Source of the DNA: an uncultured Christensenellaceae bacterium
GTDB lineage: Bacteria > Bacillota > Clostridia > Christensenellales > UBA3700
DNA length: 64,000 bases
Assembly (NCBI GenBank): GCA_944381365.1
Contig: CALWKW010000001.1
Span: 279,100-343,099, forward strand
Direction: 5' to 3'
Shown here: positions 30,956 through 55,414 of the stretch, piece after piece
Layout: each line of letters starts with the position of its first letter
Position numbering within the stretch: position 1 is the first letter of the stretch
Notes under the pieces: model-generated
The model's input: the letters and a program-made list of their open reading frames with translations, nothing else
Databases searched by the model: none
Told to the model about the DNA's origin: nothing
Position numbers and translations under genes: made by a program

Positions 30956-30964
30956 AAGTGCTTT

Positions 30965-31951: not shown

Positions 31952-32063
31952 TTTCTTTCTCCTTTATGTTTTTGCCTGAATTGTTTTGTTTCAGGGCTTT
32001 GAAATATTGTCCCAACTTGTATTTTGCAATTTCCTTTGCGATAAGTCTTAATCTTTTTGTCAT
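31935..32063 (-). CDS. Possible small basic ORF (42 aa) filling the only gap in the operon
   Basis: Manual translation gives MTKRLRLIAKEIAKYKLGQYFKALKQNNSGKNIKEKENELVE*. It starts 12 nt after the upstream stop, has a weak SD and is below the ORF-track cutoff. Confidence 0.25.
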   Translation of the reverse strand: MTKRLRLIAKEIAKYKLGQYFKALKQNNSGKNIKEKENELVE

Positions 32064-32075
32064 AAATATAGTTCC

Positions 32076-32459: not shown

Positions 32460-32473
32460 TTTTCCTCCCAAGA

Positions 32474-33916: not shown

Positions 33917-34458
33917 CTTCTCGGCTTGATTCTTATCTCGCCTTTTTTTCTTGTCGCCGTCCTCATGTCTTCTTTGAATCTTTCAGAATACATTACGGAC
34001 TGTTCATACATACCCTCGATGAGGCTGTACTCTGCACATATTCCCAAAGCAAGCGTCTTTGCACTTATGATAGGACTTATAGGACACTGTTCGTCAATCT
34101 CTATGTCCACGGGAAGATAGGTGTATTTTACGAGGGCTTTTTTTATGTCTTTGTTTTCGAGCACGCACTCTGTGGGATTCATTCTGAAATTGGTATAAAT
34201 ACCGTTTTTTACATTTTTGACGGAGAGTATTTCCAGCACTCTGTGAAGCAACTTTTCATAACTTATGTTGCCATTGTCAATCTCTACTTCCTCTGTTTCT
34301 GTGAGAGGGATATAATCTGTCGCTATCTCTTTTATGACAAGATTGGCACATTTGACCAACAATTTGAGTCTGGGGTGCTGTGCCGTTTTGTTGTTGACAG
34401 ATGCGTCCTCATCGCCGAGATATGTAAGAGATAATTGTATAGCTTCTTTTAATTCCAT
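33907..34458 (-). CDS. Phage structural protein, 183 aa (putative head-tail adaptor)
   Basis: Strong SD (AAGGAGAGAAAAATG), downstream of the MCP and overlapping the next gene by 10 nt. Function inferred from position. Confidence 0.5.
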   Translation of the reverse strand: MELKEAIQLSLTYLGDEDASVNNKTAQHPRLKLLVKCANLVIKEIATDYIPLTETEEVEIDNGNISYEKLLHRVLEILSVKNVKNGIYTNFRMNPTECVLENKDIKKALVKYTYLPVDIEIDEQCPISPIISAKTLALGICAEYSLIEGMYEQSVMYSERFKEDMRTATRKKGEIRIKPRRWL

Positions 34459-34477
34459 TTTTCTCTCCTTATGATAA

Positions 34478-34501
34478 AAGGGTGAGTGTCACCTCACCCT
34501 T
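34478..34501 (-). terminator. GC-rich hairpin inside the structural operon (partial terminator/attenuator or RNA stabiliser)
   Basis: AAGGGTGAG-6 nt-CTCACCCTT (9-bp stem) lies in the 49-nt gap after the 104-aa gene. It is followed on the minus strand by only a short T stretch. Confidence 0.45.
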
Positions 34502-34507
34502 ATGGGA

Positions 34508-34822
34508 CTAAAGTCCTATGCCGCTCATTGTCTTTTCAAACAAATTTTTCATATACTCTTGTTCTTGTCGAATATTTTGTTGTTCGATTTCTTTTAATAT
34601 GCGTTCTTTGTTTTTTACTTCGCTCTTCAGCGTATAGTCTACGGCTCTTTTGTCGAGAGTTTTGTATGGAAAAGTGAGCTGATAAGAAGGATGACTTTTT
34701 GTATTGTGAAGCTCATAGCTTTTCGTATCCCCGTTGAAGTATATTTTGTAGTCTGCGTCAATACTCTTTATCCGATTGGCTATGTCAAACAAATCATCTT
34801 TTATCTCTATCAACTTTTCCAT
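34508..34822 (-). CDS. Phage hypothetical protein (104 aa; possible decoration/head-completion protein)
   Basis: Start moved to the internal ATG (MEKLIEIKDDLF...) because the 184-aa version overlaps the MCP gene. Coiled-coil-like C-terminus. Confidence 0.5.
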   Translation of the reverse strand: MEKLIEIKDDLFDIANRIKSIDADYKIYFNGDTKSYELHNTKSHPSYQLTFPYKTLDKRAVDYTLKSEVKNKERILKEIEQQNIRQEQEYMKNLFEKTMSGIGL

Positions 34823-34908
34823 ATTTATCCCTCTTTTTCCGTATGACTCTCTTTTTATACAAATGCAAATGCTTTTAATCGATTGACAAAATTTATCGAC
34901 AAAAAATG

Positions 34909-36081
34909 TTATTGAGCGGTAATACCCGAAAGCTTTGCCTGACCGATAGGCTTGTCGCAAATCATATCGGCATACTTGACGAGTGTAGCACTGTATGTCG
35001 CACTGCCCGCTTTTTGCTTGATTACCTTGCCGTTGTCGCCCTCGAGCCATCTCCAATCGCAAAGCTGATGCAACTTGAAGTCCTGACTGTTGAGCAAATA
35101 CATCGTACCCTTTTCTACAAATCTGTCTGCGATAAGAGGAATACCGTTGTAGGACAAAGCCTTAAAACCTCCGTCAAGATTCATATAGTCGATATTGGTA
35201 CGAGTGAGAGCAAGATAGTCGAGATATGCTCTTCTTACATCATACGAGCATACGATAAAGTCAATCTGACTTCCCGCTACTTCATCGATATAGTCGATTG
35301 CACTCTGAATTTTTGCGGTAGAGATAGCACCCGTATTTGCATAATGTTTGGGCTGCAACCAGCTTCTGCCCTCTCTCGACAAACCGTAAAGCTCCTTGTC
35401 TGAGAATATAGCTCCAAGACCTGTGAGTTCGTTTTCCTTTGAGCCCTGAACCGTAACGGTATCGCCGTCCTGAATGCTCGAAGACACGCTTGCTGCCACG
35501 GTAATTGTATCGTTTACTCTGTCTACTGCGGTAATTCTTACGCCCTTGAGGTCGCTATAAACATTGCCGTTTGATTTTGCATAGACATCGATTACCATAC
35601 CTTCCATGACATTGCGTACGCTGTCCACTTTGATAGTATTTGCTGTCGAGCCTTCGGCAGAACATGTAGCCAATACGCCGCTTCCGTCTCCGTACAACAT
35701 TCTTCCGAGATTGAACTTGGAAGCTTTGAGCAAGCCTTCCATTTCTGCATTGAGAAGGTTTACGAATGCACCGGTATTTGACTGAGATGCTCTGATTGCC
35801 TTGTCTGACAACTCGATAGTACCATAAAGGTTTTTAAGTTCGAGCTTGAATCTGTCATAGTTGTTTGCTGCGGGAACAGGCAATTCGCCGCTTTCTGTAC
35901 CGGCTCCTATACCGCCGTTGATGCCATAGGGTACGAGCTTGATGATTTCCTTACCCCATACATCAGAGGTAGTCTGTTGTATTTTTGCCAAAAGTGGATT
36001 GACGCCTACATTGAGTTGGTCTGCCACTACATTCAAATAGACACTTTTCAGTGCCTTTTCTGCTGTTTCTAATGTTACCAT
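34909..36081 (-). CDS. Phage major capsid protein (HK97-fold type)
   Basis: 390 aa. The N-terminal pattern ...KSVYLNVVADQLNVGVNPLLAKI...GKEIIKLVPYG... and the G-rich E-loop-like region are typical of MCPs. AGGAGG SD, TAATG overlap with the scaffold-like gene, and position after portal and scaffold. Confidence 0.8.
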   Translation of the reverse strand: MVTLETAEKALKSVYLNVVADQLNVGVNPLLAKIQQTTSDVWGKEIIKLVPYGINGGIGAGTESGELPVPAANNYDRFKLELKNLYGTIELSDKAIRASQSNTGAFVNLLNAEMEGLLKASKFNLGRMLYGDGSGVLATCSAEGSTANTIKVDSVRNVMEGMVIDVYAKSNGNVYSDLKGVRITAVDRVNDTITVAASVSSSIQDGDTVTVQGSKENELTGLGAIFSDKELYGLSREGRSWLQPKHYANTGAISTAKIQSAIDYIDEVAGSQIDFIVCSYDVRRAYLDYLALTRTNIDYMNLDGGFKALSYNGIPLIADRFVEKGTMYLLNSQDFKLHQLCDWRWLEGDNGKVIKQKAGSATYSATLVKYADMICDKPIGQAKLSGITAQ

Positions 36082-36716
36082 TATATCCTCCTGTTGTTGA
36101 GCATAGTTGTGATTACTGCCCCCGCCTCTGCTATGCTCTTAGGTCTCGAAGGCGGAGTGAGTGTGATTTGTCCTCTGGAAGTTATGGACTTTGGCGGCAT
36201 AGTCTTTTGCAATCCGTCAAGATATTCATCGACTATGTTTTGTCTGATGCTTTCGTTGGGGTAAATATATTCTTTGATAAAGTTTTCGTCCCCTGCAAGC
36301 TGCTGAGGCGATACATATTGTTTGCACAATACTCTCAACAAAGCGATTTCAAGACAATTATCTTGTCTTTGCAAGGCTTTATCAGAGATTATTTCATTCC
36401 CGATAGCATTGGCAAATTGCTTTGCCAAAGGATAGGTGCTCAAAAAAGCATTGACTTTGTCCTGCCAATCTTCTTTGTCAAATACCGCTTTTTCTTCTTT
36501 TTCAGGAGTGTCTGAAGTTTGCTCCTCTTCATTCTCGGTATTTTCGTCTGTGGTCAAAGGATTTTGTCTTTGCTCTTTGGTATCTTCTTTGATTTCAGTT
36601 TCCAAAGTCTCATTTTCTTCCTGAGAAGGTATATCTAAGGCTTCCTTGATCGTTTCTTCGGAAGCGGGTTGGGCTTGGTTTTGCGTTTGCTGTGTATTTT
36701 TATCTTTCTTTTTCAT
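36081..36716 (-). CDS. Putative scaffolding protein
   Basis: 211 aa with a very acidic low-complexity N-terminus, located between the portal and MCP genes. Positional inference. Confidence 0.5.
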   Translation of the reverse strand: MKKKDKNTQQTQNQAQPASEETIKEALDIPSQEENETLETEIKEDTKEQRQNPLTTDENTENEEEQTSDTPEKEEKAVFDKEDWQDKVNAFLSTYPLAKQFANAIGNEIISDKALQRQDNCLEIALLRVLCKQYVSPQQLAGDENFIKEYIYPNESIRQNIVDEYLDGLQKTMPPKSITSRGQITLTPPSRPKSIAEAGAVITTMLNNRRI

Positions 36717-38574
36717 ATTGCTCCTCTGTCTTTTGCAAACCGTCTGTCATGAGTTTTGCAAGTTTATGCTGTTTGATATGCTCGTCTAGCAAGGCTTTGA
36801 GTTTTTCGTCTTTGAGTTCGAGCAAAGCTTTGAGATGCTCTTCTATGTGCAAATCGTGGTCGTCATAATCCGCTACCTTCAAATCTTTCTTTCCCGTTTC
36901 GAGATTTTCTTTGAGAGCTTTTTTGCGATGACTCTCGTCTACATCTCTGCCCGACTCCCAGTTGCCGAATCCCAAAATCTCAAGTATCTTGACTTTGTTT
37001 CTTGGCGATATCTCTCCGTTTTCGCCATTGAAAATACCCATGCTCACCAAGTCAAGCACCATCTTTCTTCTGTTTTCCAAAGTATCTGTAAGCTCGTTTT
37101 CGTTGTCAAACACAAGGTCATCGCTTCTCAAATCGCTTGCCGTAAAATATGCAAGTTCTACTTCTCCGTTGTCTCCCGAAAATCTCTTTACTCTCTTTGT
37201 CGTGCAATATTGCTTATAAAGTCTCAGCATTTGCTCGCATATATGTTTGACTGCGTTTCTCAACGAATTCGTAGCAATGCTCAATCTCGTATCGTCCTGC
37301 TCGACCAAAAGTCCTATCGCTTTACCTGACAATTGATTGTAGACATTTGAATATTTGCTCAATTCGCTTACGCCCGACATGGTAGTAAACTCTGAGAGTA
37401 TTCTCTCTTCTTCATACTGAAAGTCCGCAGGCACTTGTCCCACTTCCAAAAGTCTGGGCGGAGTCGAGCCTTGTCTGTATATGAGTACTTTTCCTGGGGA
37501 AAGTCCCTCTTCTTCGAGATTGTCGGTATCTATCGAGCCGTCCTCAATAGTCATTACTCCCATGGCAAGTCTGTTCATAAACTCGTGTTTTCTGTTTTTG
37601 ACGGCATTGTATGCTCTTTGCAAAGGTATAAGTCTTTCGATTATGCTCGTGCCGTAAAAACAGCCTATTTTGTCAAGACATATCGTCTTTGTAAAAGGAT
37701 AACCTCTTTGCTCGTTTTCCTGATTTATATACGGCAAATCGCCATAATACACAAGCTGATCTCCAGCTACGATTATGAGTTCGCCATTGGGTTTTTCCGA
37801 TGTGGGACGGCAATATTTTTCTATCACGATACACATATCGTGAGCCACGCTGTCTATCATATTGGGAAAACTTGCGTCATATCCGAGTCCGCCGCCTATC
37901 TGTGCATTGTCGAGAGAAAAGACATTGACATCTTCGCCTTTTACCTCTATGCCCCATATATCCTTTACTTCGTCCACATGATATGCTTTTGCGTGTATAA
38001 TGCTTTGACAATCGTTGATATCCGAAGTAGTAAGGCTGTCGGGAAAAATCTCATAAGGCGGCACGACAGTGACTTCCACATCTCCTTCTTTTACTGCCTT
38101 TTTGTTTTTTGCAAGTCCGATTACTCTTCCCTTGTCTGCCGACCATACCGTTTTGAAAAAACAAGTTCCCGTGACTTCGCTCCAAGTGCTTGCCACATTG
38201 AGCAAAGACGCTATTTTGTTTTCTTCGCAAAGTGCTTTGACAATCTGCGTAGAAAGTTTTGCAGTATGCACATCGCTGTCATCGCTGCTGAAAGGTCTTA
38301 CGCTCACGCCGCATTTGAGTCTGTTGAGTTTTGCAAGACGGGTTTCTACGATTGATGCAATATGGTTGTACACCTCACGCTCTTGCCAGAAATATTGTTT
38401 GCCATACTGTTCGATATCGCCTACGGGAGAAATCTCGGCATATTGATTGCCGTTGTAGAAATTCATATTGAGACGCCACTGAAGCTCGAGAGGTTTTCTT
38501 TCTTCTCTTCTGCGTTGATAATCCTTTCTTACCTCATTGACGATATCTTCTTTGAATTTATCATCTTTTATCAT
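36700..38574 (-). CDS. Phage portal protein
   Basis: 624 aa. The N-terminal LELQWRLNMNFYNGNQY motif is typical of portal proteins. It follows terL. Confidence 0.85.
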   Translation of the reverse strand: MIKDDKFKEDIVNEVRKDYQRRREERKPLELQWRLNMNFYNGNQYAEISPVGDIEQYGKQYFWQEREVYNHIASIVETRLAKLNRLKCGVSVRPFSSDDSDVHTAKLSTQIVKALCEENKIASLLNVASTWSEVTGTCFFKTVWSADKGRVIGLAKNKKAVKEGDVEVTVVPPYEIFPDSLTTSDINDCQSIIHAKAYHVDEVKDIWGIEVKGEDVNVFSLDNAQIGGGLGYDASFPNMIDSVAHDMCIVIEKYCRPTSEKPNGELIIVAGDQLVYYGDLPYINQENEQRGYPFTKTICLDKIGCFYGTSIIERLIPLQRAYNAVKNRKHEFMNRLAMGVMTIEDGSIDTDNLEEEGLSPGKVLIYRQGSTPPRLLEVGQVPADFQYEEERILSEFTTMSGVSELSKYSNVYNQLSGKAIGLLVEQDDTRLSIATNSLRNAVKHICEQMLRLYKQYCTTKRVKRFSGDNGEVELAYFTASDLRSDDLVFDNENELTDTLENRRKMVLDLVSMGIFNGENGEISPRNKVKILEILGFGNWESGRDVDESHRKKALKENLETGKKDLKVADYDDHDLHIEEHLKALLELKDEKLKALLDEHIKQHKLAKLMTDGLQKTEEQYEKER

Positions 38575-38789
38575 TGTTCGCCTCTTCCTTTGTTTCTCAT
38601 ATAAATATTCTTGGGGCTTTTGGGTACAAGGATTTTTGAGGTAGCGTCATAAAGATTTTGCATACAATCCTTGCAGAGATTGATATATCGGCTTTTGTCC
38701 ACGCCGTCAGGTACGACAGAATAATCTGCCATATTGGTGCAAACGCCCATATCGCATTTAAGTTTGTTTGTCTGAATTACTATCTTCAT
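38571..38789 (-). CDS. Small Cys-rich phage protein (72 aa, possible zinc ribbon)
   Basis: AAGGAG lies 6 nt upstream of the ATG at 38789. Cys pairs CDMGVC and CKDC. ATGA overlap with the portal gene. Confidence 0.5.
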   Translation of the reverse strand: MKIVIQTNKLKCDMGVCTNMADYSVVPDGVDKSRYINLCKDCMQNLYDATSKILVPKSPKNIYMRNKGRGEQ

Positions 38790-39057
38790 TTTTCTCTCCT
38801 TTTGTCATATCGTTTAGCTGAGAAATCAGCCTGAATTTTAGTTGTTCGAGCTGTTCATCGCTCAAGGCGGTAATATCATCGGTCTTGTCGATACCGAGTT
38901 CGACCATAGTTTTGACGGCGGTCATATCGGGAGGATAATGTTTGAGACTGACTTTTCTTTTCAAAAGTTCGTTGTCGCCCGAATATTCCTCTACTATTTC
39001 CTGAATATCATAGCCGACCGCCTTGCGATAAACGGCCTTTTCTATTTCTTCATTCAC
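38758..39057 (-). CDS. Small phage protein (99 aa), possible terminase small-subunit-like/DNA-recognition protein
   Basis: GTG start with GGGAGG 5 nt upstream. The KHYPPDMTAVK segment resembles the PPD motif I recall in some TerS proteins. Weak evidence. Confidence 0.4.
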   Translation of the reverse strand: MNEEIEKAVYRKAVGYDIQEIVEEYSGDNELLKRKVSLKHYPPDMTAVKTMVELGIDKTDDITALSDEQLEQLKFRLISQLNDMTKGEKNEDSNSDKQT

Positions 39058-39077
39058 TTTTTCCTCCCTTGAGAGAG

Positions 39078-40505
39078 TTATATTTTTTGCCGTTTATTAA
39101 GTTGTTTTATAAGTTTTTGTTTATCTTTTTGTATTATGGTGGGCTTTAAGGAAGGAAGTTTTGTCGCTTTTGGTTTTGTACATAGATAATAACGGAGGGC
39201 ATCGAGTGCGTGGTCATCTTTTTTTATCGGTTTATCTCCCTTTCCCCACCAATAAGTTTTGAGTTCTCTTATAAGGTTTGTACAATTTGAAAATATCTTG
39301 ATTTTGTCTTCTGAAAAAAAACTTTTGACCTGAGCTATACCCGAAAAAAGCTGTTTGTTGACATTTGTATTGACGAGTATGTTTCTGTCATAAAAAAGTT
39401 CTGATACGCTTTTTTGACTTGCGAGAGTATGCTGATCCGCCGCACTGTCTATGAGTGCCGACAATCTTCCTTTTCCGTCTCTGTGCCAATTAAGTTTTTG
39501 AGCAAGTTCGTGAATTTTTTCTGCGTGATAATCTATGTCCTTTCCCGCCATATACCATTCCCCAACCACATACACGGTTCCGTCATAGTCCACCGCAAAA
39601 AACAAACACGCCAAAGGATTGTTGAGTCCCGGGTCGATAGAGATATTGTCCTGCCATTCAAAAGGGATATCAAAAGGCTCTATGACATGTCTGTTTTGGT
39701 CAAATTCTTTATAGACAATGCCTTCTGCCTCGCAAAATCTTCCGAATCTTCTCGAAGCAAGCGTATCTTCGTCAAGGCATTTAGAAAGAGCGTCAACCTC
39801 ATTTTTGTCAAGAAAAGGATTGTCCGCCCACTCTATATGTTCGTGCCATGTTTCATCGTCTTGTTTTGAATTGAGATATATCTCGTCATACACCCAAGTC
39901 AGTCCTTTTAGAGGTGTCATTGTGCCCCACACTTCGCCTCGTCTGTCCAAAACTCTCATTCTGCATTCGTCATAAATATCCTTTGGCGGCTCTTCGTCAA
40001 ACCACACAAAGTCAAGCGATGTTCCCTGAAATTTTTCTCTGCCTTGGTCACAGCTCTTAAAAGATATTTTGGACACTCCGCCAAATATGTTTTTTATGAG
40101 AATATAATCTATAATTCCGTATTCGGCAGATGCTTTTTTGCCTGACGACATTACAATATCTTCTATCCAATCGGGATTGAGATAACTCAAAAACTTGCTT
40201 TGAGCGACATCTCTTTGCACCTCATAAGACAAAGATACTATCCAGCCCGACACATTTTTTCTGTTTTGTCTGTACGGATGAATTCCTCTCGCCCACCATA
40301 CCGCTTCTACAGCTCCGCACTCTGTTTTTCCGCTTCTGTTTCCGCCAAAAACCCACCTGTTTCTTTTTTGACATTTATGGAATATGAGTTGTTTTTCATG
40401 GACTTTTTCGCCTGTATTATAATGCGATAATTTATCTCCCGCCTGCCTTCTTGCCTGTTCTTTTTCTATGGCTAGAATTCTTCCGAGTATTTGCTTTTCT
40501 GTCAT
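39078..40505 (-). CDS. terL: Phage terminase large subunit
   Basis: 475 aa with Walker A FGGNRSGKT, Walker B LDFVWFDEEP and a C-terminal RNaseH-like nuclease region (D-rich motifs). Confidence 0.9.
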   Translation of the reverse strand: MTEKQILGRILAIEKEQARRQAGDKLSHYNTGEKVHEKQLIFHKCQKRNRWVFGGNRSGKTECGAVEAVWWARGIHPYRQNRKNVSGWIVSLSYEVQRDVAQSKFLSYLNPDWIEDIVMSSGKKASAEYGIIDYILIKNIFGGVSKISFKSCDQGREKFQGTSLDFVWFDEEPPKDIYDECRMRVLDRRGEVWGTMTPLKGLTWVYDEIYLNSKQDDETWHEHIEWADNPFLDKNEVDALSKCLDEDTLASRRFGRFCEAEGIVYKEFDQNRHVIEPFDIPFEWQDNISIDPGLNNPLACLFFAVDYDGTVYVVGEWYMAGKDIDYHAEKIHELAQKLNWHRDGKGRLSALIDSAADQHTLASQKSVSELFYDRNILVNTNVNKQLFSGIAQVKSFFSEDKIKIFSNCTNLIRELKTYWWGKGDKPIKKDDHALDALRYYLCTKPKATKLPSLKPTIIQKDKQKLIKQLNKRQKI

Positions 40506-40608
40506 AATTCGTCATAATAAATCCACAATTTTTGATATATTGAACAAAATTGTATTGTAAAAATAATAAAATTAGAATATAATTAATATATTACTTAGCG
40601 AGGTTTGT

Positions 40609-41361
40609 ATGAAAAAACTTATACTTGTCACATTGCTTCTTGCCATGCTCATTGTACCCTGCATAAGCTGCGGTACTGCTTTGGCTGAAGAAGACGGAAA
40701 TATCTATTATTACACAGCGAGCGAAATCCCCGTGTTTTCCGACACACAAGGCGGAACTCCTCTTTACTATATCCCTTCGACCTATGCCTATAAATTTTTG
40801 AGCGAAGTACAAGACAGCGATTATATCAAAATCGAGTACAACGGCAAAGAAGGATATATCAAAAAAGACCGCCACAAAAAAGAAAATCAGGTAAAACTCG
40901 ATTGGAAAGACACTTATTACTACAACTTTACTTTCAGTATTACTCCCGAAATCGTCACTTTGTACAAATCATCTGACATAAACGCTTCGGGACAATATGT
41001 AAAAAGCTCTGTTGCTATCAACAAGGTTTACGGATACACCTATACCCTCAAAGATAATGTAAAAGAATTTTATTTTCTGATAGAGTTTACCAGCAATGAA
41101 GTAAAGGACACAAGGTATGTCAAAGCAAGCGATACCACATTAAGCGGATTCACATTGGACGAGATTCCTCAGAATGAGTATTATTTGCAAGAGATTACTC
41201 CCGAAACTCCAAGCGGCGATACCGATACCGGCAATACTGACGGCATCCAAGAGCCTACAAACAATCTCGAAAGATATCTTCTTATCACCGTAATAGCCGT
41301 ATTGTGCGTAATCATTGTGGTATTAATTTTTATTCCAAACAAGCACCGCAAAAATAACTGA
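40609..41361 (+). CDS. Secreted, C-terminally membrane-anchored protein with SH3b-like domains
   Basis: Signal peptide MKKLILVTLLLAMLIVPCISC, SH3-like segments (...DYIKIEYNGKEGYIKK...) and a C-terminal TM (LLITVIAVLCVIIVVLIFI) followed by a basic tail. Confidence 0.55.
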   Translation: MKKLILVTLLLAMLIVPCISCGTALAEEDGNIYYYTASEIPVFSDTQGGTPLYYIPSTYAYKFLSEVQDSDYIKIEYNGKEGYIKKDRHKKENQVKLDWKDTYYYNFTFSITPEIVTLYKSSDINASGQYVKSSVAINKVYGYTYTLKDNVKEFYFLIEFTSNEVKDTRYVKASDTTLSGFTLDEIPQNEYYLQEITPETPSGDTDTGNTDGIQEPTNNLERYLLITVIAVLCVIIVVLIFIPNKHRKNN

Positions 41362-41376
41362 CATAATTTTTTGCAT

Positions 41377-41408
41377 AAAAAAAGCCGTAGCAATACGGCT
41401 TTTATTCT
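41377..41408. terminator. Bidirectional intrinsic terminator
   Basis: AAAGCCGTA-gcaa-TACGGCTTT is flanked by an A-run and a T-run, between convergent genes. Confidence 0.85.
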
Positions 41409-41427
41409 TTTCGCCAAAATATTTATT

Positions 41428-42003
41428 CTAAATCATTGCACTGCTCTCAGCTTTTGCCTCCGATGCCATTGCCACATTTGCCATAGCACAGACAAATTGT
41501 TTTGTCTTGTTGTCGCAGGTATTTGCTTTGACAAGAGAATTTTTTTGAAGTTGAGCCATATTGACTTCGTTGAGTCTTATGAACAGGCTGTCTCTTGCAT
41601 ATCTTTTTTCCAGCCACGCTTCGTCATACCCTTTTGCTCTCAATATTGCCGAAAAAGATTTTATGGCAAAAGCATATCTTCTGAAGACAGTCCTAAGGCA
41701 TATTCCCAAAATATCTGCGATGTCTTCAAAACTTTTTTTGTCTATGTACTTCATTTCGAGGATCTGCCTGTATTTGGGTTTGAGGTCTGCAAGAGTGGTG
41801 TCCACAATCACTTTTGCGTTTATCAAAGCCTCCTTGCGTTTGTTGTTGTCGATAATTTTTTGCATAAGGTCTAATGTGTTGCCCGCATAGGAAAAACTGC
41901 CAAGAGCCATAGTCATTGTGTAAGAATCTATCGATTTGACTATCTTTGGCAAAATCCTATAAGATGCGAGAAGACTTTTGGACCACATCTCTTGATTCAT
42001 CAT
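41428..42003 (-). CDS. Sigma-70 region-4-type HTH regulator (ArpU/DUF1492-like phage late-gene activator candidate)
   Basis: YRQILEMKYIDKKSFEDIADILGICLRTVFRRYAFAIKSF is a region 4.2-like HTH. Start set at the ATG at 42003 (GGAGGTGAT upstream). Confidence 0.6.
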   Translation of the reverse strand: MMNQEMWSKSLLASYRILPKIVKSIDSYTMTMALGSFSYAGNTLDLMQKIIDNNKRKEALINAKVIVDTTLADLKPKYRQILEMKYIDKKSFEDIADILGICLRTVFRRYAFAIKSFSAILRAKGYDEAWLEKRYARDSLFIRLNEVNMAQLQKNSLVKANTCDNKTKQFVCAMANVAMASEAKAESSAMI

Positions 42004-42073
42004 ATCACCTCCGTTTACACTCAAAGTATATTACAAAGGGTTAGGGAAAATCAATCTTTTATGACAATATTTT

Positions 42074-47025: not shown

Positions 47026-47994
47026 TTATTCTTCATCATCGATAGATAAGTCATCTTGCAAATCCACTTGAGGGTTCAAAATATTTTCTATCCAATCAAG
47101 CACATCCTGATATACTTCTTCTTTATTAAGTTCGTTCAAAATCTCGTGTCTAGATTTGTTGTAAAGCTTTATGTCGATATTTTTCATATTGAGTCCGACA
47201 TACATATCATACAATTCTCTCACGAGTTTTCCCATATTGCCCACGGGGTCATTGTCTCCGCTTATGATAAACACAGGCAAATCTTTTGATATCGACTCAA
47301 GATTTTCTTTTTCATAGATTTTGCTCAAGCCGTCAAAGAAGTATTTATAAAATCCTATGGACATCGTATAATTGCAGAATTTGTCATTATTATACTTTTC
47401 ACAAGCATCGACATCTCTGTTGAGCCAAGCATTTGCTCTCTTTTCTTTTTTAAAAGGTTTGTCATAACCGCCGAAAGAAAGTTTTCTTATGAGATTTGCA
47501 GGCTTATCTTTTCCATACAATTTGAATTGCAGATTAGCCACAGCCTTGCCCATTTTGACATCGGGCGTATCCATTTTTGCCGAGCCGCACAATACACAGC
47601 CTTTTATATCCTTGCTGTGCTTTTCTATATAACCTTGAGCAAGGAAAGATCCATAACTATGTCCGAATAAGAATATCGGCAATTCGGGAAATTTATTTTT
47701 AAGATACTCTGTGAGTACAAAAGCATCGTCAATCGTATCGAAATAAGTATGTCCTTCAGGTACCTTGCCGAGATTTTCCTCCCCAGCCGTCAAACCATGT
47801 CCTCTGTGGTCATCTCCTGCCACCACAAAACCGTTTGTCGCCAAAAACGATGCAAACTCATCGTATCTGTCTATATATTCTACCATACCGTGAAGTATCT
47901 GAACTATTCCTCTTGGCGAACCTTCGGGAATCCAAAACGAAACGCTGAATTTATAGCCGTCTCGTCCGTTTAAAATTTCTTTAAATTTTTGCAT
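47026..47994 (-). CDS. Alpha/beta hydrolase (lysophospholipase/monoacylglycerol-lipase-like)
   Basis: HG oxyanion motif (ILHGMVEY) and nucleophile elbow GHSYGS. Start set at the ATG at 47994 (GGGGGAAA upstream). Acidic C-terminal tail. Confidence 0.8.
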   Translation of the reverse strand: MQKFKEILNGRDGYKFSVSFWIPEGSPRGIVQILHGMVEYIDRYDEFASFLATNGFVVAGDDHRGHGLTAGEENLGKVPEGHTYFDTIDDAFVLTEYLKNKFPELPIFLFGHSYGSFLAQGYIEKHSKDIKGCVLCGSAKMDTPDVKMGKAVANLQFKLYGKDKPANLIRKLSFGGYDKPFKKEKRANAWLNRDVDACEKYNNDKFCNYTMSIGFYKYFFDGLSKIYEKENLESISKDLPVFIISGDNDPVGNMGKLVRELYDMYVGLNMKNIDIKLYNKSRHEILNELNKEEVYQDVLDWIENILNPQVDLQDDLSIDDEE

Positions 47995-48142
47995 AATATT
48001 TCCCCCAACAAAATTATACATATACATTATATAGTATAATTACAAATTTTTCAACCCCAATTATTGTGTTTTTGTCAACTTTTTTAATATTTAATATTTA
48101 AAAACTCTTTAAAATCAGCTTATATTAAGATAATTTATTATT

Positions 48143-48157
48143 TTGAACATTGTTCAA
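48143..48157. promoter_or_regulatory. Palindrome copy 1: TTGAACATTGTTCAA (7-1-7)
   Basis: A perfect 15-bp inverted repeat in the 520-bp hydrolase/murG intergenic region. Confidence 0.4.
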
Positions 48158-48330
48158 TAGTTTTATTACTGATATATATTTATATCTTTATACAGATTCT
48201 TTCCTCTATAAAAAACTATAAAAATTTGTCATTCTTGCTTTAATTAAAAATATACTGCCCTAATCAATCCATTAAATTTGCCATATTATAACAGTAATAA
48301 AGATATATTTATATCTTTAATTATAAAATT

Positions 48331-48359
48331 TTGATAAATTGAACACTGTTCAATATATT
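48331..48359 (+). promoter_or_regulatory. Candidate murG promoter TTGATA-17-TATATT whose spacer is palindrome copy 2 (TTGAACACTGTTCAA, 48339-48353)
   Basis: Hexamers with exact 17-nt spacing. The 15-bp palindrome fills the spacer, an operator-over-promoter geometry, about 190 nt upstream of the murG ATG. Confidence 0.4.
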
Positions 48360-48549
48360 TTAAAATTTATCTACCGCTTATTTATCACCTAACAATTTGC
48401 ATCTTACTGCTATCTACATATTTTTACATTGCTTCTATTTCCAAAACCTCAATAGACATGAACAACGCCAATTTTATTTTCATATTATGATTAGATTTGA
48501 TAATTTGAGCTAAAACGCAAACACTATTTCAAAGAATCAGGAGGCATAT

Positions 48550-49593
48550 ATGAATATAGCTTTGACAGGCGGAGGTACCGCAGGACATGTAATGCCAAAC
48601 ATGGCACTACTTAAAGAATTGAGAAAAAAATTCGATAAAATCATATATATCGGCAATCAAGATAAGATAGAATACGATATCTGCAAAAAATATGATGTGC
48701 AATTTTTCCATTGTGACAGCATAAAATTTGACAGAACAAAAGTTTTATCCAATATAGCTATTCCTTTCAAACTCCCCTCATATATCAACCAAGCAAAAGA
48801 GCTGTTAAAACAAAACAATATTGATATTGTATTTTCAAAAGGCGGTTATGTCGCTCTGCCTGTAGTGTACGCAGCCAAAAAATTGAATATCCCCACTATA
48901 TGTCATGAGAGCGACTACACAATGGGACTAGCCAACAAATTGACTTCAAAATTCGCCAAAGGCATTATCACATGCTTTGAAAACACTTCCGATAAAAAAA
49001 ATGTAAAAGTTTTTCCCAATCCTATAAGAGACTCGTTTTTTAAAGGCAATGCTCAAAATGTCTTCGATAAACTTCCCCTCAATCACACCCAGCCTATTTT
49101 ACTCGTGGTCGGCGGCTCAATGGGAGCAAAAAGCATAAATGAAATTATATATAATTCGCTCGATACTCTTACCATAAGATATCAAATTATTCATATTTGC
49201 GGAAATACCCCAAAAGATATAAAACATAAAAATTATTATCAGCTCAAATTTGCCGACAATATACAGGATTATCTTATGGCAAGTGACTTAATTATATCGA
49301 GATGCGGTGCAGGTGCATCCACAGAAATAAACGCACTAAACAAAAAAGCACTCTATATCCCCTTGCAAAACAAAGCTTCTAGAGGCGACCAAGTACTAAA
49401 CGCAAAATTTCAAGAAGAAAACGGCTACGCTCTTACTCTTACAGAAGACAAACTCAACAAAGAAAATCTTGTCAAAATGCTTGAAAAACTCATGTCCTTT
49501 GACAAAAAGCCTTATCACTACGACAAAGACAACAACTTGCGTATAGTAGATTATATCTACAAAACTGCACAAGAATTTTCTCATTCCCACTAA
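48550..49593 (+). CDS. murG: Undecaprenyldiphospho-muramoylpentapeptide beta-N-acetylglucosaminyltransferase
   Basis: 347 aa with N-terminal LTGGGTAGHVMP (the MurG G-loop) and a GT28 C-terminal domain (VVGGSMGAKSIN). AGGAGG SD. Confidence 0.85.
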   Translation: MNIALTGGGTAGHVMPNMALLKELRKKFDKIIYIGNQDKIEYDICKKYDVQFFHCDSIKFDRTKVLSNIAIPFKLPSYINQAKELLKQNNIDIVFSKGGYVALPVVYAAKKLNIPTICHESDYTMGLANKLTSKFAKGIITCFENTSDKKNVKVFPNPIRDSFFKGNAQNVFDKLPLNHTQPILLVVGGSMGAKSINEIIYNSLDTLTIRYQIIHICGNTPKDIKHKNYYQLKFADNIQDYLMASDLIISRCGAGASTEINALNKKALYIPLQNKASRGDQVLNAKFQEENGYALTLTEDKLNKENLVKMLEKLMSFDKKPYHYDKDNNLRIVDYIYKTAQEFSHSH

Positions 49594-49619
49594 TTACTAA
49601 AATAATCTACATCCACTAA

Positions 49620-49658
49620 ATCTCATAGACATTTTGAATCTTTTATTGTCTATGAGAT
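49620..49658 (+). terminator. Probable murG terminator hairpin
   Basis: A 12-bp stem ATCTCATAGACA/TGTCTATGAGAT with a 15-nt loop, followed by ATTTTAT. Confidence 0.55.
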
Positions 49659-49785
49659 ATTTTATAAGTATTGATTCAAAATTGCTATCAACTTTATATC
49701 AGACTAAGCCATATCAAAACGAAAAAACAAATATTTTTCTATAAAACATGATACAAACCATTTATTCAGAATCAACTGCTATATT

Positions 49786-49800
49786 TTGAACATTGTTCAA
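49786..49800. promoter_or_regulatory. Palindrome copy 3: TTGAACATTGTTCAA
   Basis: A perfect 15-bp inverted repeat (17 bp with flanking T/A) in the 567-bp convergent intergenic region. Confidence 0.4.
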
Positions 49801-50068
49801 ATTATGATATTTTATAGATCATTAAAAAATTGTAGATTTTTTTATTACATCGCAATATTTAACTAAGTATGTTTGGATTTTTGTAATACATAACCCATAA
49901 TGCACTTTTATGTAAAATAACTAAAAAGATATATCTCAACAATTCACGCTCTTATAATCCAAAGACCTTTAATTCAAGATTATCCGTTATCACAATTTCA
50001 CATCTATTTATCAAATAATCGACATATATCCTAATAATTTATCACTATATTTATCTTTAATAATAAAA

Positions 50069-50105
50069 ATATACACAATTTGAACATTGTTCAAATTGTG
50101 TATAT
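50069..50105. repeat. 37-nt perfect palindrome containing palindrome copy 4 (core 50080-50094)
   Basis: ATATACACAATTTGAACATTGTTCAAATTGTGTATAT is self-complementary about T50087. It is followed on the minus strand by TTTTATTATT, so it may double as the terminator of the PAP2-ligase operon. Confidence 0.6.
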
Positions 50106-50160
50106 AATGTGCGTATATACCTATAAATCAGACTTAATTTATATATTTATAGCTTTAGCA

Positions 50161-51795
50161 TCAATTATTATCAGCCTTTTCGCTTTCTTCCTGAAGTTTT
50201 TTAAAGTCCACCTTTCCTATTTGCGTAAGAGGAAGACTATCTACCACTTCGACCAATCTGGGCACACTGTATTTGAGCAAATGCTTTGCTATATAATCTT
50301 TCAGCCCTTTTATATATTTCTCGTCAGCAACTATGCCGTCTTTTGTCATAAGATAAAGCTTTAATTCCGTTCGACCGTCTTTATTGACAGAAATAACACA
50401 GCTTTTATATACCCCATCATATTTATTGACATAATCTTCAATTTCCTGAGGAAAGACATTCATACCGCTTATTTTGACCATTCTTTTTAATCTGTCAATA
50501 AAATATACATATCCGTCTTCATCGATATATCCTATATCGCCCGTCTTGAGCCACTTTTCGCCTTTTTTATCGACAAAGATAGTCTCCTTGGTCAACTCCT
50601 CGTCATCATAATATCCGCTCATCATGCTGTTTGTAGCAATTACAATCATACCTTTTTGATTATGAGACAAGAAGTTATTATTTTCGTCTATTATGGCAAA
50701 TTTATTGTTTTTTATAGGCTTTCCCAAAGTACCTTCTTTGTGTATATCCATAGTATTTACACAGCATATACCGCCCTCAGTAAGTCCGTATCCCGCACAA
50801 AGCTTTATAGGATTACCGCTTTTTGCCATAGCTTCTTCAAATCTTGTTTTTATCGCATCAGACAGTTTATCTCCGCCGCAATAACAATTCTTTAGCTTCT
50901 TAAGGTATTCGCCTTTAAATTTGCCCGAAGAGACCATTTTTGCATACATATTGGGTACGCCTGCAATATATGTCACATTTCGCTTTTTTACGAGCCTACA
51001 AGCCCCTTTAGGATTGAATTTAGGCATCATTACAGCTTGTCCGCCACCGGAAATTACAGTATGCATACATATACCCAATCCGAAATTGTGGAAAATCGGC
51101 AATACCATAAGCATACCGTCTTTATCATCTACGCCGCCGCCTATCAAATCGATAGCATTATCCGCCAAATGATTGAAAGAATCATTGTTGAGCATTACGG
51201 TCTTTGATTTTCCGGTAGTTCCACCACTATGCATATATATAGCTATATCTTCGCCTTTTATGTCCACTTTAAGCGGTTTGAAACCAATCAAAGTATCCTT
51301 AAATCTTACGACTCTATCGTCATACTTAAGCTTTTTCTTGAATTTTTTAGAATAAATGTTATAAGGTAATTTATAAAGCTTGGGCAAATAGTCGCTTACC
51401 GAACACAATATGACAGGTTTTTCACTTTGCTTAAGCCATTCATATTTATTATAAAATTCATCAAAAAGAATAAAAGCCTTGCTATTCATTCTCTCGGAAA
51501 TTTCTTTAAGAGATTGACTAGGGATCAATGGATGCACAATATTCGCTATTGCTCCTGTATTGTTTATCGCATAAAAGCTGACAATAGCATCAGGCAAATT
51601 ACCAAGGCACAATATCACATTATCGCCTTTTCCTATGCCTACGCTTTGCAAAAAGCCCGTAAGGCTGTTGACATTATCTATAAACTCTCCGATACCTATC
51701 GAAGCACCAAAAAAATTCCAAACTCTGTTGGTACGAGGAAGTCTTTTTGTCTCGTCTACCACATAGCTGAACATTGATTTATCAAATTTTGTCAT
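50161..51795 (-). CDS. Acyl-CoA/acyl-AMP ligase (AMP-binding, long-chain fatty-acid-CoA-ligase-like)
   Basis: AMP-binding motif MHSGGTTGKSKTV, plus GYGLTE and a GDIGYIDEDGYVYFIDRLK core. Start set at the ATG at 51795, which gives TGAAATG coupling to the PAP2 stop. Confidence 0.85.
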   Translation of the reverse strand: MTKFDKSMFSYVVDETKRLPRTNRVWNFFGASIGIGEFIDNVNSLTGFLQSVGIGKGDNVILCLGNLPDAIVSFYAINNTGAIANIVHPLIPSQSLKEISERMNSKAFILFDEFYNKYEWLKQSEKPVILCSVSDYLPKLYKLPYNIYSKKFKKKLKYDDRVVRFKDTLIGFKPLKVDIKGEDIAIYMHSGGTTGKSKTVMLNNDSFNHLADNAIDLIGGGVDDKDGMLMVLPIFHNFGLGICMHTVISGGGQAVMMPKFNPKGACRLVKKRNVTYIAGVPNMYAKMVSSGKFKGEYLKKLKNCYCGGDKLSDAIKTRFEEAMAKSGNPIKLCAGYGLTEGGICCVNTMDIHKEGTLGKPIKNNKFAIIDENNNFLSHNQKGMIVIATNSMMSGYYDDEELTKETIFVDKKGEKWLKTGDIGYIDEDGYVYFIDRLKRMVKISGMNVFPQEIEDYVNKYDGVYKSCVISVNKDGRTELKLYLMTKDGIVADEKYIKGLKDYIAKHLLKYSVPRLVEVVDSLPLTQIGKVDFKKLQEESEKADNN

Positions 51796-51796
51796 T

Positions 51797-52783
51797 TCAC
51801 TCCATTTTTGCCAAAGCTTCGTCCGCCACAGCAAAATTAGTACTTTTTCTGAAGAATAAATATTTAAGAACTCTAAAGATGATATATGATATTCCGGCTC
51901 CTGCGATTACATCGGACATAAAGTGTGCATCATCGCATATTCTTGACAAACAAGACAATACGACAAACAAGAAGCATCCTGTATATATCACATATTTGAG
52001 CCATTTCTTTTCTTTCCATTTTGGCAAACATTCATACATTACACACAACAAAAAGATATGTGCGGCAGAACTCGAATGACCGGAAGGAAAAGATGTATAT
52101 TCATAATCGGGATTTAGCTCGATTTTTGTAGCGTCAGGCATATACCAAGGCGTAAAATAGCTAAAGCCGTCATTTCCCAAAGCATTTTCTTTGAGCATAT
52201 CTCTAAATCTCATTCTGTGCCAAAGCATTTTCATGCCTTGATTTATCAAAAGAGCCACCAAAAGATATACTACTGCAAAAACAGCAAACTTAAATAGCAA
52301 ATATCTTGTCTTTTTGGGTATAAATCGTCCGAGCAAAATGCTGACAATCGCACAAATTACCGCCACAATACCCATGACTACCGCAAATACTATTCCGTCA
52401 AAGCCCACTTCTTGAAGCATGTCCATTGCTTCGCTTTTAAAACAAAGAATTACCCATCCTCCGATAGTCAAAACCACCATACCTATTTTGTACAAAATTC
52501 TGTATTTTTGAGGGATAAGGTCTGCACAATAAAATAGCATAGGTCCGAAAACAGGCAAAATAAAATACGCAGGATATTCCGCAACAATAGAGAAAAAAGT
52601 GGCAAAAGCGGTTTTTACCCAATTCCCGTTGTACGATTTTGACAATGCCTTATTTATGATCAAATCAAAATATTCGCCATTTTTATTTTTAAAAGCTAGA
52701 AGAATCAAAACCCCGACAAGTAAAACAGCCAATACAGAATGTATAGTTATGGATATGATTTTATCTCTTTTTTGCTCGGTCAT
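51797..52783 (-). CDS. PAP2-family membrane phosphatase
   Basis: 328 aa polytopic protein with the PAP2 motifs PSGHSS and SRICDDAHFMSD. Confidence 0.8.
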   Translation of the reverse strand: MTEQKRDKIISITIHSVLAVLLVGVLILLAFKNKNGEYFDLIINKALSKSYNGNWVKTAFATFFSIVAEYPAYFILPVFGPMLFYCADLIPQKYRILYKIGMVVLTIGGWVILCFKSEAMDMLQEVGFDGIVFAVVMGIVAVICAIVSILLGRFIPKKTRYLLFKFAVFAVVYLLVALLINQGMKMLWHRMRFRDMLKENALGNDGFSYFTPWYMPDATKIELNPDYEYTSFPSGHSSSAAHIFLLCVMYECLPKWKEKKWLKYVIYTGCFLFVVLSCLSRICDDAHFMSDVIAGAGISYIIFRVLKYLFFRKSTNFAVADEALAKME

Positions 52784-52983: not shown

Positions 52984-54009
52984 TTAATAATTTTCTATAC
53001 TCAACAATTTTTCCACGCTCTTGGAGCCGTAAGGCTTGAGATAAACAGAGCTTGTATCGTAAAATCCATTTATATTGTCAGCAAGATTGTATCCCGCTTC
53101 TCCTCTGTCATAAGAAAATTGAACTTCACTCTTAAGAGTAACATTTCCATTCAAAAGTCCGCCAGACAATTTCATATTGTATGATTCAGTAATATGAATA
53201 TTTCTTATCATACCGTTTTTCCAAAGCACCACTCTCAATCTCAACTGCAAAAACTCAAGATTGTTTACCGTCATTCCGGCATTTTCACTAAGCTGGGCCT
53301 TCATGGTGTTGATATAGCTCTTTGTGGCTTTTACAGGATCCAACAGCAAAACAAATCTGCATGTACCCGTCTTTTCGTCATATATAGGCTCAGAACTCTC
53401 CTGAACATTTTCCTCAGCGGTATCATACATCCACAAAAGTGTAGGATTGTTGTATTTCTTTTGAGTAAAATCATCGAGATTTTCAAAGCTTGACTGCACC
53501 TCATTCCATGACTTTACATTTATAGAATTTTCCTTTCTCAAATAACTTGTATTTGCGTTTCTATACAATATCTGATCGGGATATACAACCATTTTTTCAT
53601 AAAGATGTGCCAATGAAGAATAAGAAATACTATCTGCAAAATATGTAGCCCCGTAAAGATTCTGACCGCTGGCATCGCCTTTTCCGTCTCTTACTTTGGC
53701 TACATCAACAACCTGACTCTTTTTTACCACACCCATAGAAGTCAAGGCTGTACCGTATTGCTGAGAAATCACAAAATCTGCATTATAATAATTTTTGATT
53801 GCAGTATCAAACATCTCATAAGCCGTCATATCTTCATTAATACTTACGGCATTTACATTTTCAGGCATATTCTTGCCTATATTCATATCTATAATGTCAA
53901 AATCTTCAGTACCTACTTTCTGTATACTCTGTTTGCATCCTGTCATAGCAGTAATCAAACCCGTAAAAATCATAGCAATAGCAATCATTGCGACAAAAAA
54001 CTTTTTCAT
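52984..54009 (-). CDS. Lipoprotein of unknown function (paralogue A)
   Basis: Signal peptide plus lipobox (LITAMTGC). Clearly homologous along its full length to the 54428-55414 product. Confidence 0.75.
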   Translation of the reverse strand: MKKFFVAMIAIAMIFTGLITAMTGCKQSIQKVGTEDFDIIDMNIGKNMPENVNAVSINEDMTAYEMFDTAIKNYYNADFVISQQYGTALTSMGVVKKSQVVDVAKVRDGKGDASGQNLYGATYFADSISYSSLAHLYEKMVVYPDQILYRNANTSYLRKENSINVKSWNEVQSSFENLDDFTQKKYNNPTLLWMYDTAEENVQESSEPIYDEKTGTCRFVLLLDPVKATKSYINTMKAQLSENAGMTVNNLEFLQLRLRVVLWKNGMIRNIHITESYNMKLSGGLLNGNVTLKSEVQFSYDRGEAGYNLADNINGFYDTSSVYLKPYGSKSVEKLLSIENY

Positions 54010-54427: not shown

Positions 54428-55414
54428 TTATGCTTCGTAAGGCTTTGTATAAGTCTTGTCATCGCTCGTGATCGATGCGATATTCTCGTCAATATCATAG
54501 CCTGCTTCATTTTTATCAAATGAATATTGTACATAAGATTGCAATGTGATTGTACTATCAATGATACCAGCTATCTTCATCTTGTAAGACTCTGTGATAT
54601 GCATATTTCTGATCATACCGTTTTCCCAAAGAACAACTCTCAATCTCAACTGCTTGAATTCGATACCGCTTACTGACATACCAGCGTTTGCTTCGAGCTG
54701 TTGTTTCATTGTGCCCTTGTAGTTTTCTGTGGACTTGATAGGATCGAAGATAATAGCAAATCTGTATGTACCTGTAGCTTTGTCATATACAGGAGTAGAA
54801 GCTTCGAGAATATACTGTTCCTGCAAGTCATACATCCACAAGATAGTAGGATTGTTTGCCTTCTTCTTTGTAAAGTCAGCTACATCGCTGAAGTTTGTAT
54901 CAATAGCATTCCAATACTTGATTTCAAAAGCATCTTTTCTCTTACTGTAAGATGTCTTAGCGTTTCTGTATTGAATTTCATCGGGAGTGATAACAATCTT
55001 CTCATACAAGCTAGCTACGCTTGAATAAGAAATGCTGTCAGCAAAATATTTTGCTCCGTTTGCGTTGTTGCCATTTATATCGCCCTTACCTGATCTGATT
55101 TTTGCAGCGTCAACTACCTGAGTTATCGGAATACCCAAAACTGAAGTAAGAACAGTACCAAGCAACTGAGAAGCAGCATAATCTACATCATAATAGTTCT
55201 TTACAGAAGCATCGAGCATTTGGAAAGCTGTCATGTCTGCACTCAAAGGATTTGCTACCTCAACATCGGGCATTGTCTTACCGATATTCATTTCGGCAAT
55301 TTCAAAGTCCTCAACGCCAATTTCTTCCAAGCCGTCATCACAAGCAGCAAATGCCATGAGAGACATGGAAAGAACCATAACTATAACTAAAATTGAAATC
55401 AAACTTTTTTTCAT
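54428..55414 (-). CDS. Lipoprotein of unknown function (paralogue B)
   Basis: Signal peptide plus lipobox (LMAFAAC). It shares blocks with paralogue A, such as YFADSISYSS, NPT(L/I)LWMYD, QLRLRVVLW(K/E)NGMIRN(I/M)HITESY. Confidence 0.75.
   Translation of the reverse strand: MKKSLISILVIVMVLSMSLMAFAACDDGLEEIGVEDFEIAEMNIGKTMPDVEVANPLSADMTAFQMLDASVKNYYDVDYAASQLLGTVLTSVLGIPITQVVDAAKIRSGKGDINGNNANGAKYFADSISYSSVASLYEKIVITPDEIQYRNAKTSYSKRKDAFEIKYWNAIDTNFSDVADFTKKKANNPTILWMYDLQEQYILEASTPVYDKATGTYRFAIIFDPIKSTENYKGTMKQQLEANAGMSVSGIEFKQLRLRVVLWENGMIRNMHITESYKMKIAGIIDSTITLQSYVQYSFDKNEAGYDIDENIASITSDDKTYTKPYEA

Follow-up and report, generated by a model that had tools for sequence, protein, structure and literature searches.

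Conserved palindromes flanking a murG-like gene in an uncultured Christensenellaceae lineage are candidate operators of a TetR-family repressor

Palindromic binding sites with a 7-1-7 layout are not unique to TetR proteins. The PrfA box (Crp/Fnr-like) reads TTAACANNTGTTAA, and the LexA box of Firmicutes is GAAC-N4-GTTC. Here, we describe four perfect copies of a 15-bp palindrome with a 7-1-7 layout, TTGAACANTGTTCAA, which lie on both sides of a murG-like gene in a stretch of 64,000 nucleotides (hereafter the window) from the genome of an uncultured Christensenellaceae bacterium (GenBank assembly GCA_944381365.1, contig CALWKW010000001.1, positions 279,100 to 343,099). We compare these palindromes with the sites of described regulators, and discuss them as candidate operators of a TetR-family repressor.

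The closest described systems belong to the TetR family. FadR of Thermus thermophilus has the consensus TTRNACYNRGTNYAA, and gel mobility shift experiments on this protein revealed that single point mutations in the consensus half-site cut complex stability 10- to >1500-fold (PMC5597230). The first-pass annotation of the window had named this consensus, and the publication confirmed both the consensus and the match of the palindromes to it at 13 of 15 positions. The two share the 15-bp 7-1-7 palindrome and the skeleton TTG.AC...GT.CAA, but differ at position 7, where the window has an A and a Y is required, and at position 9, where it has a T and an R is required. BioQ, the actinobacterial TetR-family biotin regulator, has the predicted site TGAAC-N3-GTTCA (PMC3398298). 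Its half-sites and spacing match the core of the palindromes exactly, which makes it a better fit than the FadR consensus. In contrast, BioQ sites precede bio genes and bioQ, whereas the host studied here belongs to a Clostridia lineage, and no bio, bioY, or birA genes occur among the annotated open reading frames (ORFs) of the window. Finally, the TetR-family protein RefZ is associated with five near-palindromic motifs that hold their chromosomal position across the genus Bacillus (PMC6657595). The palindromes resemble RefZ and SlmA sites in having a genus-conserved genomic position with no fixed promoter register, and differ from them in that the sites of the window are exclusively intergenic, some of them lying within promoter spacers.

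The four copies are located at positions 48143-48157, 48339-48353, 49786-49800, and 50080-50094. Start to start, copies 1 and 2 are 196 nt apart and copies 3 and 4 are 294 nt apart. Our rescan reproduced these coordinates and spacings, as well as the confinement to the regions flanking murG, all of which had been reported in the first pass. Every copy displayed the half-sites TGAAC and GTTCA separated by a 3-bp gap, within a palindrome of 13-15 bp (core form TGAACAnTGTTCA). No copy is expected by chance, as dinucleotide-preserving shuffles gave 0 matches to TTGAACANTGTTCAA in 100. When up to three mismatches were allowed, the 64 kb yielded only two extra hits, at 55651 and 59208, both with three mismatches, against 7.6 expected. 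Hence, the palindrome is restricted to two intergenic regions around murG within the 64 kb. One of them separates murG from a divergent hydrolase gene and contains copy 1 (TTGAACATTGTTCAA), a predicted distal operator, and copy 2 (TTGAACACTGTTCAA), a predicted proximal operator whose central C varies between C and T among strains. The other lies between the 3′ ends of the convergent murG (stop at 49593) and ligase (stop at 50161) genes and contains copies 3 and 4, which are upstream of no annotated gene because the two genes converge.

Conservation was assessed among metagenome-assembled genomes (MAGs) labelled Christensenellaceae, Christensenellales, or Clostridia. In strains at 98.5-99.3% identity (n = 4), every site covered by their contigs was retained. 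Divergence at the strain level is too small to inform on selection, so diverged orthologous murG loci were compared instead. The palindrome was present in the hydrolase-murG intergenic region of all 17 other species with a murG 65-78% identical to that of the window, with two copies in nearly all of them, and a distal-position site equivalent to copy 1 was likewise retained in nearly all. Judging from gene identity, the 18 site-bearing species form a genus-level clade, because their neighbouring parC and parE genes are 74-96% identical. Over 44 sites from these 18 genomes (321 kb), the core TGAACAnTGTTCA was essentially invariant, with T/C and A/G at the outer positions, and all 44 sites were intergenic. 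Meanwhile, the flanks and the DNA between sites have diverged among species and can no longer be aligned. Pairs were spaced by 77, 88, 153, 160, 179, 195-197, 208-209, 217, or 278-279 nt. This range of 77-279 nt, without helical phasing, gives no support for a fixed loop between paired sites, which the first pass had raised as a possibility.

Extra sites were sporadic, and all of them fell inside a single 8-kb block. They occurred at the parE/parC junction (loci L011, L145, and L147), in the gap between the hydrolase gene and parE (L140), and in the gap between murG and the ligase gene (the window, L006, and L146). In this last region, relatives displayed no equivalent of the pair to which copy 3 belongs, and a single site was present in L006 and L146. 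No sites were detected beyond the parC-ligase block in the 321 kb of clade loci. Among loci with a murG at most 51% identical, the site was found in 0 of 61, despite the synteny of parC, parE, hydrolase, and murG across the order, and a search upstream of murG in these distant relatives revealed no palindrome that might take its place. The hydrolase-murG intergenic region measures 430-990 nt in the clade versus roughly 120-660 nt in outgroups. Thus, the sites are conserved and specific to this clade. Upstream of murG, where the first pass had suggested looking, the sites are conserved in relatives, and the ligase gene of the window has no site at its 5′ side. Together, the sites amount to a clear phylogenetic footprint left by a DNA-binding protein with sequence specificity, evidently maintained under selection, and this footprint excludes chance and a repeat of the repetitive extragenic palindrome (REP) or miniature inverted-repeat transposable element (MITE) type.

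The use of the same core elsewhere provided insights into the family of the protein that might bind it. In metagenome contigs, a scan for pairs of TGAACAnTGTTCA cores separated by 3-63 nt retrieved more than 120 loci, and those listed ranged from 30 to 72% GC and came from many habitats. Among the listed loci, one dominant protein cluster started at the sites in 47 of the 99 loci with flanking ORFs. Its members matched Pfam TetR_N in 43 of 47 cases and TetR_C_33 in 29 of 47, and a single one of the 47 matched TetR_C_4 (YsiA/FadR-type). The next cluster was PspA/IM30, with 23 loci, 14 of which also carried a TetR gene. Other partner genes encoded an Aas-like MFS-acyltransferase-AMP-ligase, an alpha/beta hydrolase, Rce1-like membrane proteases, an FMN reductase, MacB/FtsX, and DUF2339 proteins. 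Genes for LexA, Crp, or Fur were not recurrent at the tandem-core loci analysed. These associations support the earlier proposal of a dimeric TetR-type operator, and identify TGAACAnTGTTCA as a predicted TetR-type operator core. The claim that the palindromes are not LexA boxes also stands, since GAAC-N3-GTTC is the arrangement of all 44 clade sites and no LexA genes recur at the tandem sites. A literature search for the literal 15-mer or its core returned nothing relevant, and a scan of viral contigs for single sites gave at least 120 scattered single hits, which do not outline a regulon.

Some features of the metagenomic loci deserve description in their own right. The combination of a tandem TGAACAnTGTTCA with a TetR (TetR_C_33) gene and a divergent PspA/IM30 gene appears to be a widespread module of GC-rich environmental bacteria that is apparently uncharacterised (loci L213-L332). 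In loci L263, L264, L276, L278, and L329, the core is found inside long tandem repeat arrays. Locus L280, a low-GC TetR locus, was considered as a member of the clade and rejected; its U32 peptidase is 42% identical to that of the window.

The position of copy 2 relative to a promoter ties the window to these loci. Most of the 11 low-GC TetR loci listed followed the order TTGACn, 2-3 nt, operator, TATAAT-like -10, 5-6 nt, operator, ribosome-binding site (RBS), ATG. In the window, a promoter-like sequence facing murG, P2 (TTGATA-17-TATATT, positions 48331-48359 of the plus strand), matches the consensus at 10 of 12 positions, and the promoter scan agreed with the first pass that copy 2 fills its 17-nt spacer. 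The resulting register, TTGATA-AA-TTGAACACTGTTCAA-TATATT, is that of operator 1 in the low-GC TetR loci (-35, 2 nt, 15-mer, -10). Thus, the core is used by TetR regulators elsewhere in the same promoter register. That its register equals that of TetR-proximal promoters is the strongest argument for copy 2 marking a genuine TetR-repressed promoter. Both the function of P2 as a promoter and its occlusion at copy 2 are predicted from this arrangement. In five relatives, the distal site lies within TTTACA-1-site-1-TATAAT, also facing murG. A test with flexible register counted promoters facing murG with a site in their spacer in 6 of 82 site-orientations, a modest excess over the 2.1 +/- 1.4 obtained in flank shuffles. 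Fixed-register tests (site as -35, or site 2 nt after a -35) detected no conserved promoter across the clade.

The repressor-over-promoter geometry claimed in the first pass therefore holds for copy 2 and does not extend to copies 1, 3, and 4. Copy 1 is located about 96 nt upstream of the hydrolase -35, and no promoter overlapping it was found in the host species. The proximal murG promoter region, P1 (48459-48491, plus strand), has a -35-like TGAACA and the -10 region CATATTATGAT and scored 9/12 in the promoter scan. It lies about 70 nt before the murG ATG and overlaps no palindrome. In the 18-species alignment, CATA is invariant at the position of P1, and a -35-like TTnAC block is conserved. 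On the other side, the hydrolase promoter (TTGAAA-17-TATAAT, 48026-48054, minus strand; 11/12 consensus) is nearly invariant in 13 species, and a palindrome is found 63-500 nt upstream of it, depending on the species.

From these observations, we propose that the palindromes are operators of a trans-encoded TetR-family repressor that controls an auxiliary upstream promoter of murG, with accessory sites nearby, a reading to which we assign a probability of roughly 55%. A homodimeric TetR-family protein, encoded outside the window, would recognise the core TGAACAnTGTTCA. Sitting on copy 2, between the -35 and the -10 of P2 (predicted start near 48366), this repressor would shut the promoter, and the site-free conserved P1 would keep a basal expression of murG. 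Release of the repressor by a ligand, perhaps one connected with the membrane or envelope, would then increase the transcription of murG. Copies 1, 3, and 4 would act as accessory sites, providing a higher local occupancy or a weak long-range cooperativity, and copy 4 might have been co-opted or extended as the terminator hairpin of the ligase gene. We infer from sequence comparison that a TetR protein of the host would bind and repress at these sites, that murG rather than the hydrolase gene would be its main target, and what kind of ligand it might sense. The partner genes of the TetR loci are envelope- or lipid-related (PspA, Aas-like, hydrolase, Rce1-like, MacB/FtsX), a theme that matches the hydrolase, ligase, and PAP2 genes of the window; by analogy, they suggest an envelope- or lipid-related signal. 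At the protein level, the local hydrolase and the TetR-linked hydrolase were not significantly similar in sequence, and the similarity between the local ligase and the TetR-linked Aas-like protein was of the generic AMP-binding kind only (24% identity over 360 aa).

The window and the metagenomic TetR autoregulated pairs (mostly TetR_C_33) have in common an identical 13-bp core, Y/R outer positions, the register of copy 2, and envelope- or lipid-related partners. They differ in that the metagenomic operators are in tandem and directly at the gene of the regulator itself, whereas in the window the sites flank murG, some 74 kb contain no regulator gene, and a second operator covering the start of transcription is absent. 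Several observations weigh against the repressor model. The sites of the window are 181-279 nt apart, as opposed to 3-63 nt for the reference TetR-proximal operators, and the design of the metagenome scan was itself biased towards autoregulatory tandem pairs. Across species, the site and the core promoter (of murG or of the hydrolase gene) are anywhere between 40 and 500 nt apart, an unusual trait for a repressor that acts by simple occlusion; because of this variation, the sites are neither classical sites of class I/II activators nor sites at which the core promoters are occluded. Promoters of the P2 type were detected in only 6 of the 18 species. Within the window, overlap with a promoter is limited to copy 2, and a minority of clade sites overlap detectable promoters. 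Copies 3 and 4, between convergent genes, have no obvious target. In agreement with the first pass, tblastn and Pfam searches found no TetR-like ORF in the window, and none was found in the 10 kb past its right end. When the Firmicutes TetR subgroup was used for a profile search, 1787 homologues were obtained; those with a name come from Oscillospiraceae or Clostridiales, and none of the homologues could be traced to the clade.

The 10-kb extension to the right contained no palindrome site either. The only helix-turn-helix protein of the window is a phage-type sigma70_r4 protein (41428-42024), and those local proteins to which no function is assigned are lipoproteins rather than regulators.

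A narrower version of the repressor model identifies the regulator as an acyl-CoA-responsive TetR protein of the FadR type in charge of a fatty-acid regulon, as the first pass had suggested. The 13/15 match to the Thermus consensus speaks for this identity, as do the lipid-related neighbours (AMP-binding ligase, PAP2, lysophospholipase-like hydrolase, and DegV), whose assignments were upheld by Pfam and NCBIfam, and the fact that an Aas-like acyltransferase/acyl-ACP synthetase is under the control of some of the TetR loci that have this operator. Yet the two mismatches fall at specified positions of a half-site in which published point mutations are strongly destabilising, the ligase, PAP2, and DegV genes have no site on their 5′ side, and the conserved sites are instead between murG and the hydrolase gene. 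In addition, most operator-adjacent TetR proteins carry TetR_C_33 rather than TetR_C_4. We therefore consider the FadR identity quite unlikely. Alternatively, a dimeric factor of another family (Crp/Fnr-like, Fur-like with a 7-1-7 layout, or a divergent LexA) could regulate the hydrolase/murG pair and, in some species, parE/parC. Both core promoters have sites upstream of them at distances that vary, extra sites occur sporadically upstream of parC or parE in L145, L147, L011, and L140, the layout also exists outside the TetR family, and no regulator was found, all of which would fit such a factor. Still, TetR is the only DNA-binding family that recurs at the tandem sites, the half-site spacing departs from that of the Firmicutes LexA box, and distances as variable as these speak against a classical activator of class I/II, so that a factor from another family is unlikely.

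Very unlikely, in our judgement, is a role of the palindromes as position marks similar to those of RefZ or SlmA, by which a TetR-family nucleoid-associated protein would tag the topoisomerase IV (topo IV)-murG region and coordinate segregation or division with cell-wall synthesis. RefZ provides the precedent, the location of the sites is conserved across the clade although their register with the core promoters is not, and the sites cluster in the 8-kb block of topo IV-like and cell-wall genes, to which the extra sites are also confined. Meanwhile, the exclusively intergenic placement of the 44 sites is what is expected of transcriptional operators, copy 2 and five distal sites fall in promoter spacers, and the TetR loci known to have this operator resemble those of ordinary local repressors. 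The GC skew shows no switch in the window. The least probable reading attributes the palindromes to structure or mobility, that is, to hairpin terminators or cruciforms, to remnants or ends of a small mobile insertion that lengthened the intergenic region, or to the inverted repeats of an invertible promoter. Copy 4 and its counterpart in L006 are indeed strong terminator hairpins, the palindrome extends into flanks of unrelated sequence at several sites, the intergenic region is longer in the clade than in outgroups, and the spacing of the pairs resembles inverton sizes. Against this, copies 1-3 fold weakly and three of the four copies are located where no transcript needs terminating. An inverton was rejected, as the segment between the sites has the same orientation in five strains and in all alignable species pairs. 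As for REP or MITE elements, the flanks cease to be identical after some 17-22 nt, and neither the 64 kb nor 1.17 Mb of related loci contain dispersed copies; the dispersed repeat or MITE family that the first pass had weighed against a regulatory role is likewise not seen in the 321 kb of clade loci. The strict conservation of the 13 core bases over all sites fits recognition by a protein better than stem pairing.

The hairpins of the second intergenic region can be described as follows. Downstream of murG, an intrinsic terminator hairpin (49620-49667, plus strand) has a 12-bp stem (-16.1 kcal/mol, z = -4.05) followed by AUAUUUUAU. Folding and a terminator scan placed copy 4 within a perfect palindrome of 37 nt (50069-50105, minus strand) with an 18-1-18 layout and arms that are 100% complementary (-19.4 kcal/mol, z = -7.3). 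The terminator scan counted 17 pairs in this hairpin, and its U-tract side on the minus strand reads TTTTATTATT / UUUUAUUAUU. Because a strong hairpin is followed by UUUUAUUAUU on the minus strand, this palindrome is the predicted intrinsic terminator of the ligase gene. The same terminator arrangement with a different flank sequence is present in L006. The remaining copies have folding energies between -3.4 and -6.7 kcal/mol (copy 3, -6.7). Extended palindromic flanks, unrelated in sequence and adding 6-11 bp per side, were observed at window 50069-50105, L006 6084-6120, L011 5848-5878 (also in L147), and L134 9690-9716. They could be selected hairpins, or they could derive from template-switch mutation (quasipalindrome correction) seeded by the perfect palindrome.

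Other short elements accompany the palindromes. A 17-nt direct repeat, ATATATTTATATCTTTA, occurs at 48174-48190, 48303-48319, and 50141-50157. Two of these repeat copies are perfect, one has a mismatch at one position, and all three are close to a copy of the palindrome. The middle one belongs to a 20-bp palindrome, AAAGATATATTTATATCTTT. This repeat is confined to strains of the host species, and is not conserved in relatives. In the leader of murG, about 25 nt before the RBS, GCAAACACTA (48517-48526) is invariant in 18 of 18 species, and the related AAAACACAA is found just upstream of the hydrolase -35 (around 48066-48074). The -10 of the hydrolase promoter is bracketed by the inverted repeat ATATAC-N8-GTATAT (48015-48056, minus strand), and this repeat may serve a further, distinct regulator as its operator. 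Neither of the two murG-flanking intergenic regions contained an Rfam family (at gathering or E-value thresholds), a tRNA, or a conserved small ORF, and the Rfam search produced only chance miRNA-like matches on the copy 4 hairpin.

The genes of the locus are typical of a bacterial chromosome, as the window also encodes Der, RNase J, PEPCK, RF1, MurC, TrpRS, and TyrRS. Its sequence is identical to ENA ERZ28615132 scaffold_1 (702 kb). Genes for topo IV-like A and B subunits are followed by the hydrolase gene, the divergent intergenic region, and murG; the A subunit has no GyrA box. The hydrolase (47026-47994, minus strand; 322 aa) is an alpha/beta hydrolase of the Hydrolase_4 family (Pfam, 5e-44) and lysophospholipase-like. 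Its gene is divergent from murG, its gene call agrees with the public contig, and it is syntenic with murG across Christensenellales. The murG-like gene (48550-49593, plus strand) encodes a GT28 glycosyltransferase with the N- and C-terminal Pfam Glyco_transf_28 domains. It scored 230-252 bits against NCBIfam murG, under the equivalog cut-offs, and its homologues carry the MurG annotation in MAGs. Within the clade, this protein is only 65-72% identical, compared with 74-96% for the adjacent parC, parE, ilvE, and tyrS. Based on an identity below that of its neighbours and a score under the NCBIfam murG equivalog cut-offs, it is apparently an unusually fast-evolving MurG. Convergent with murG are the genes of an AMP-binding acyl-CoA/ACP ligase (50161-51834, minus strand; Pfam AMP-binding, 1e-61; NCBIfam long-chain-fatty-acid--CoA ligase families), PAP2, and two paralogous lipoproteins, followed by DegV. 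The lipoproteins (52984-54009 and 54428-55414), downstream of PAP2, have no Pfam match, and all relatives in the clade have retained one of the two.

A phage-like cluster of 11 kb (30375-42024) directly adjoins the topo IV-like genes. It encodes a large terminase (39078-40505), a P22-type portal protein (36700-38574), a DUF7934 protein (30965-31951), and the sigma70_r4 protein mentioned above, which also matches DUF1492. Members of the genus-level clade share 82-85% identity in the terminase and have its gene and that of the sigma70_r4 protein in an unchanged position next to parC. In Christensenellales outside this clade that are more remote, terminase identity is still 66-80%, and the gene is located within about 10 kb of murG, on the opposite side. 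This distribution suggests that the cluster is a vertically inherited element, either similar to a gene transfer agent or domesticated.

A TetR repressor acting within a promoter spacer follows textbook logic, and in this respect the finding is sound and fairly ordinary. Meanwhile, dedicated transcriptional control of murG, which performs the last cytoplasmic step of lipid II synthesis, has rarely been documented. The core TGAACAnTGTTCA emerges as the likely operator of a widespread, uncharacterised TetR subgroup that is often paired with PspA/IM30, and the cassette formed by a -35, 2 nt, the 15-mer, and a -10 offers a handle for regulon prediction and for the design of synthetic promoters. 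If our proposal is correct, a ligand-responsive TetR protein acting on an auxiliary murG promoter would couple the supply of peptidoglycan precursors to a signal of the membrane or envelope, in a gut lineage that is abundant but uncultured.

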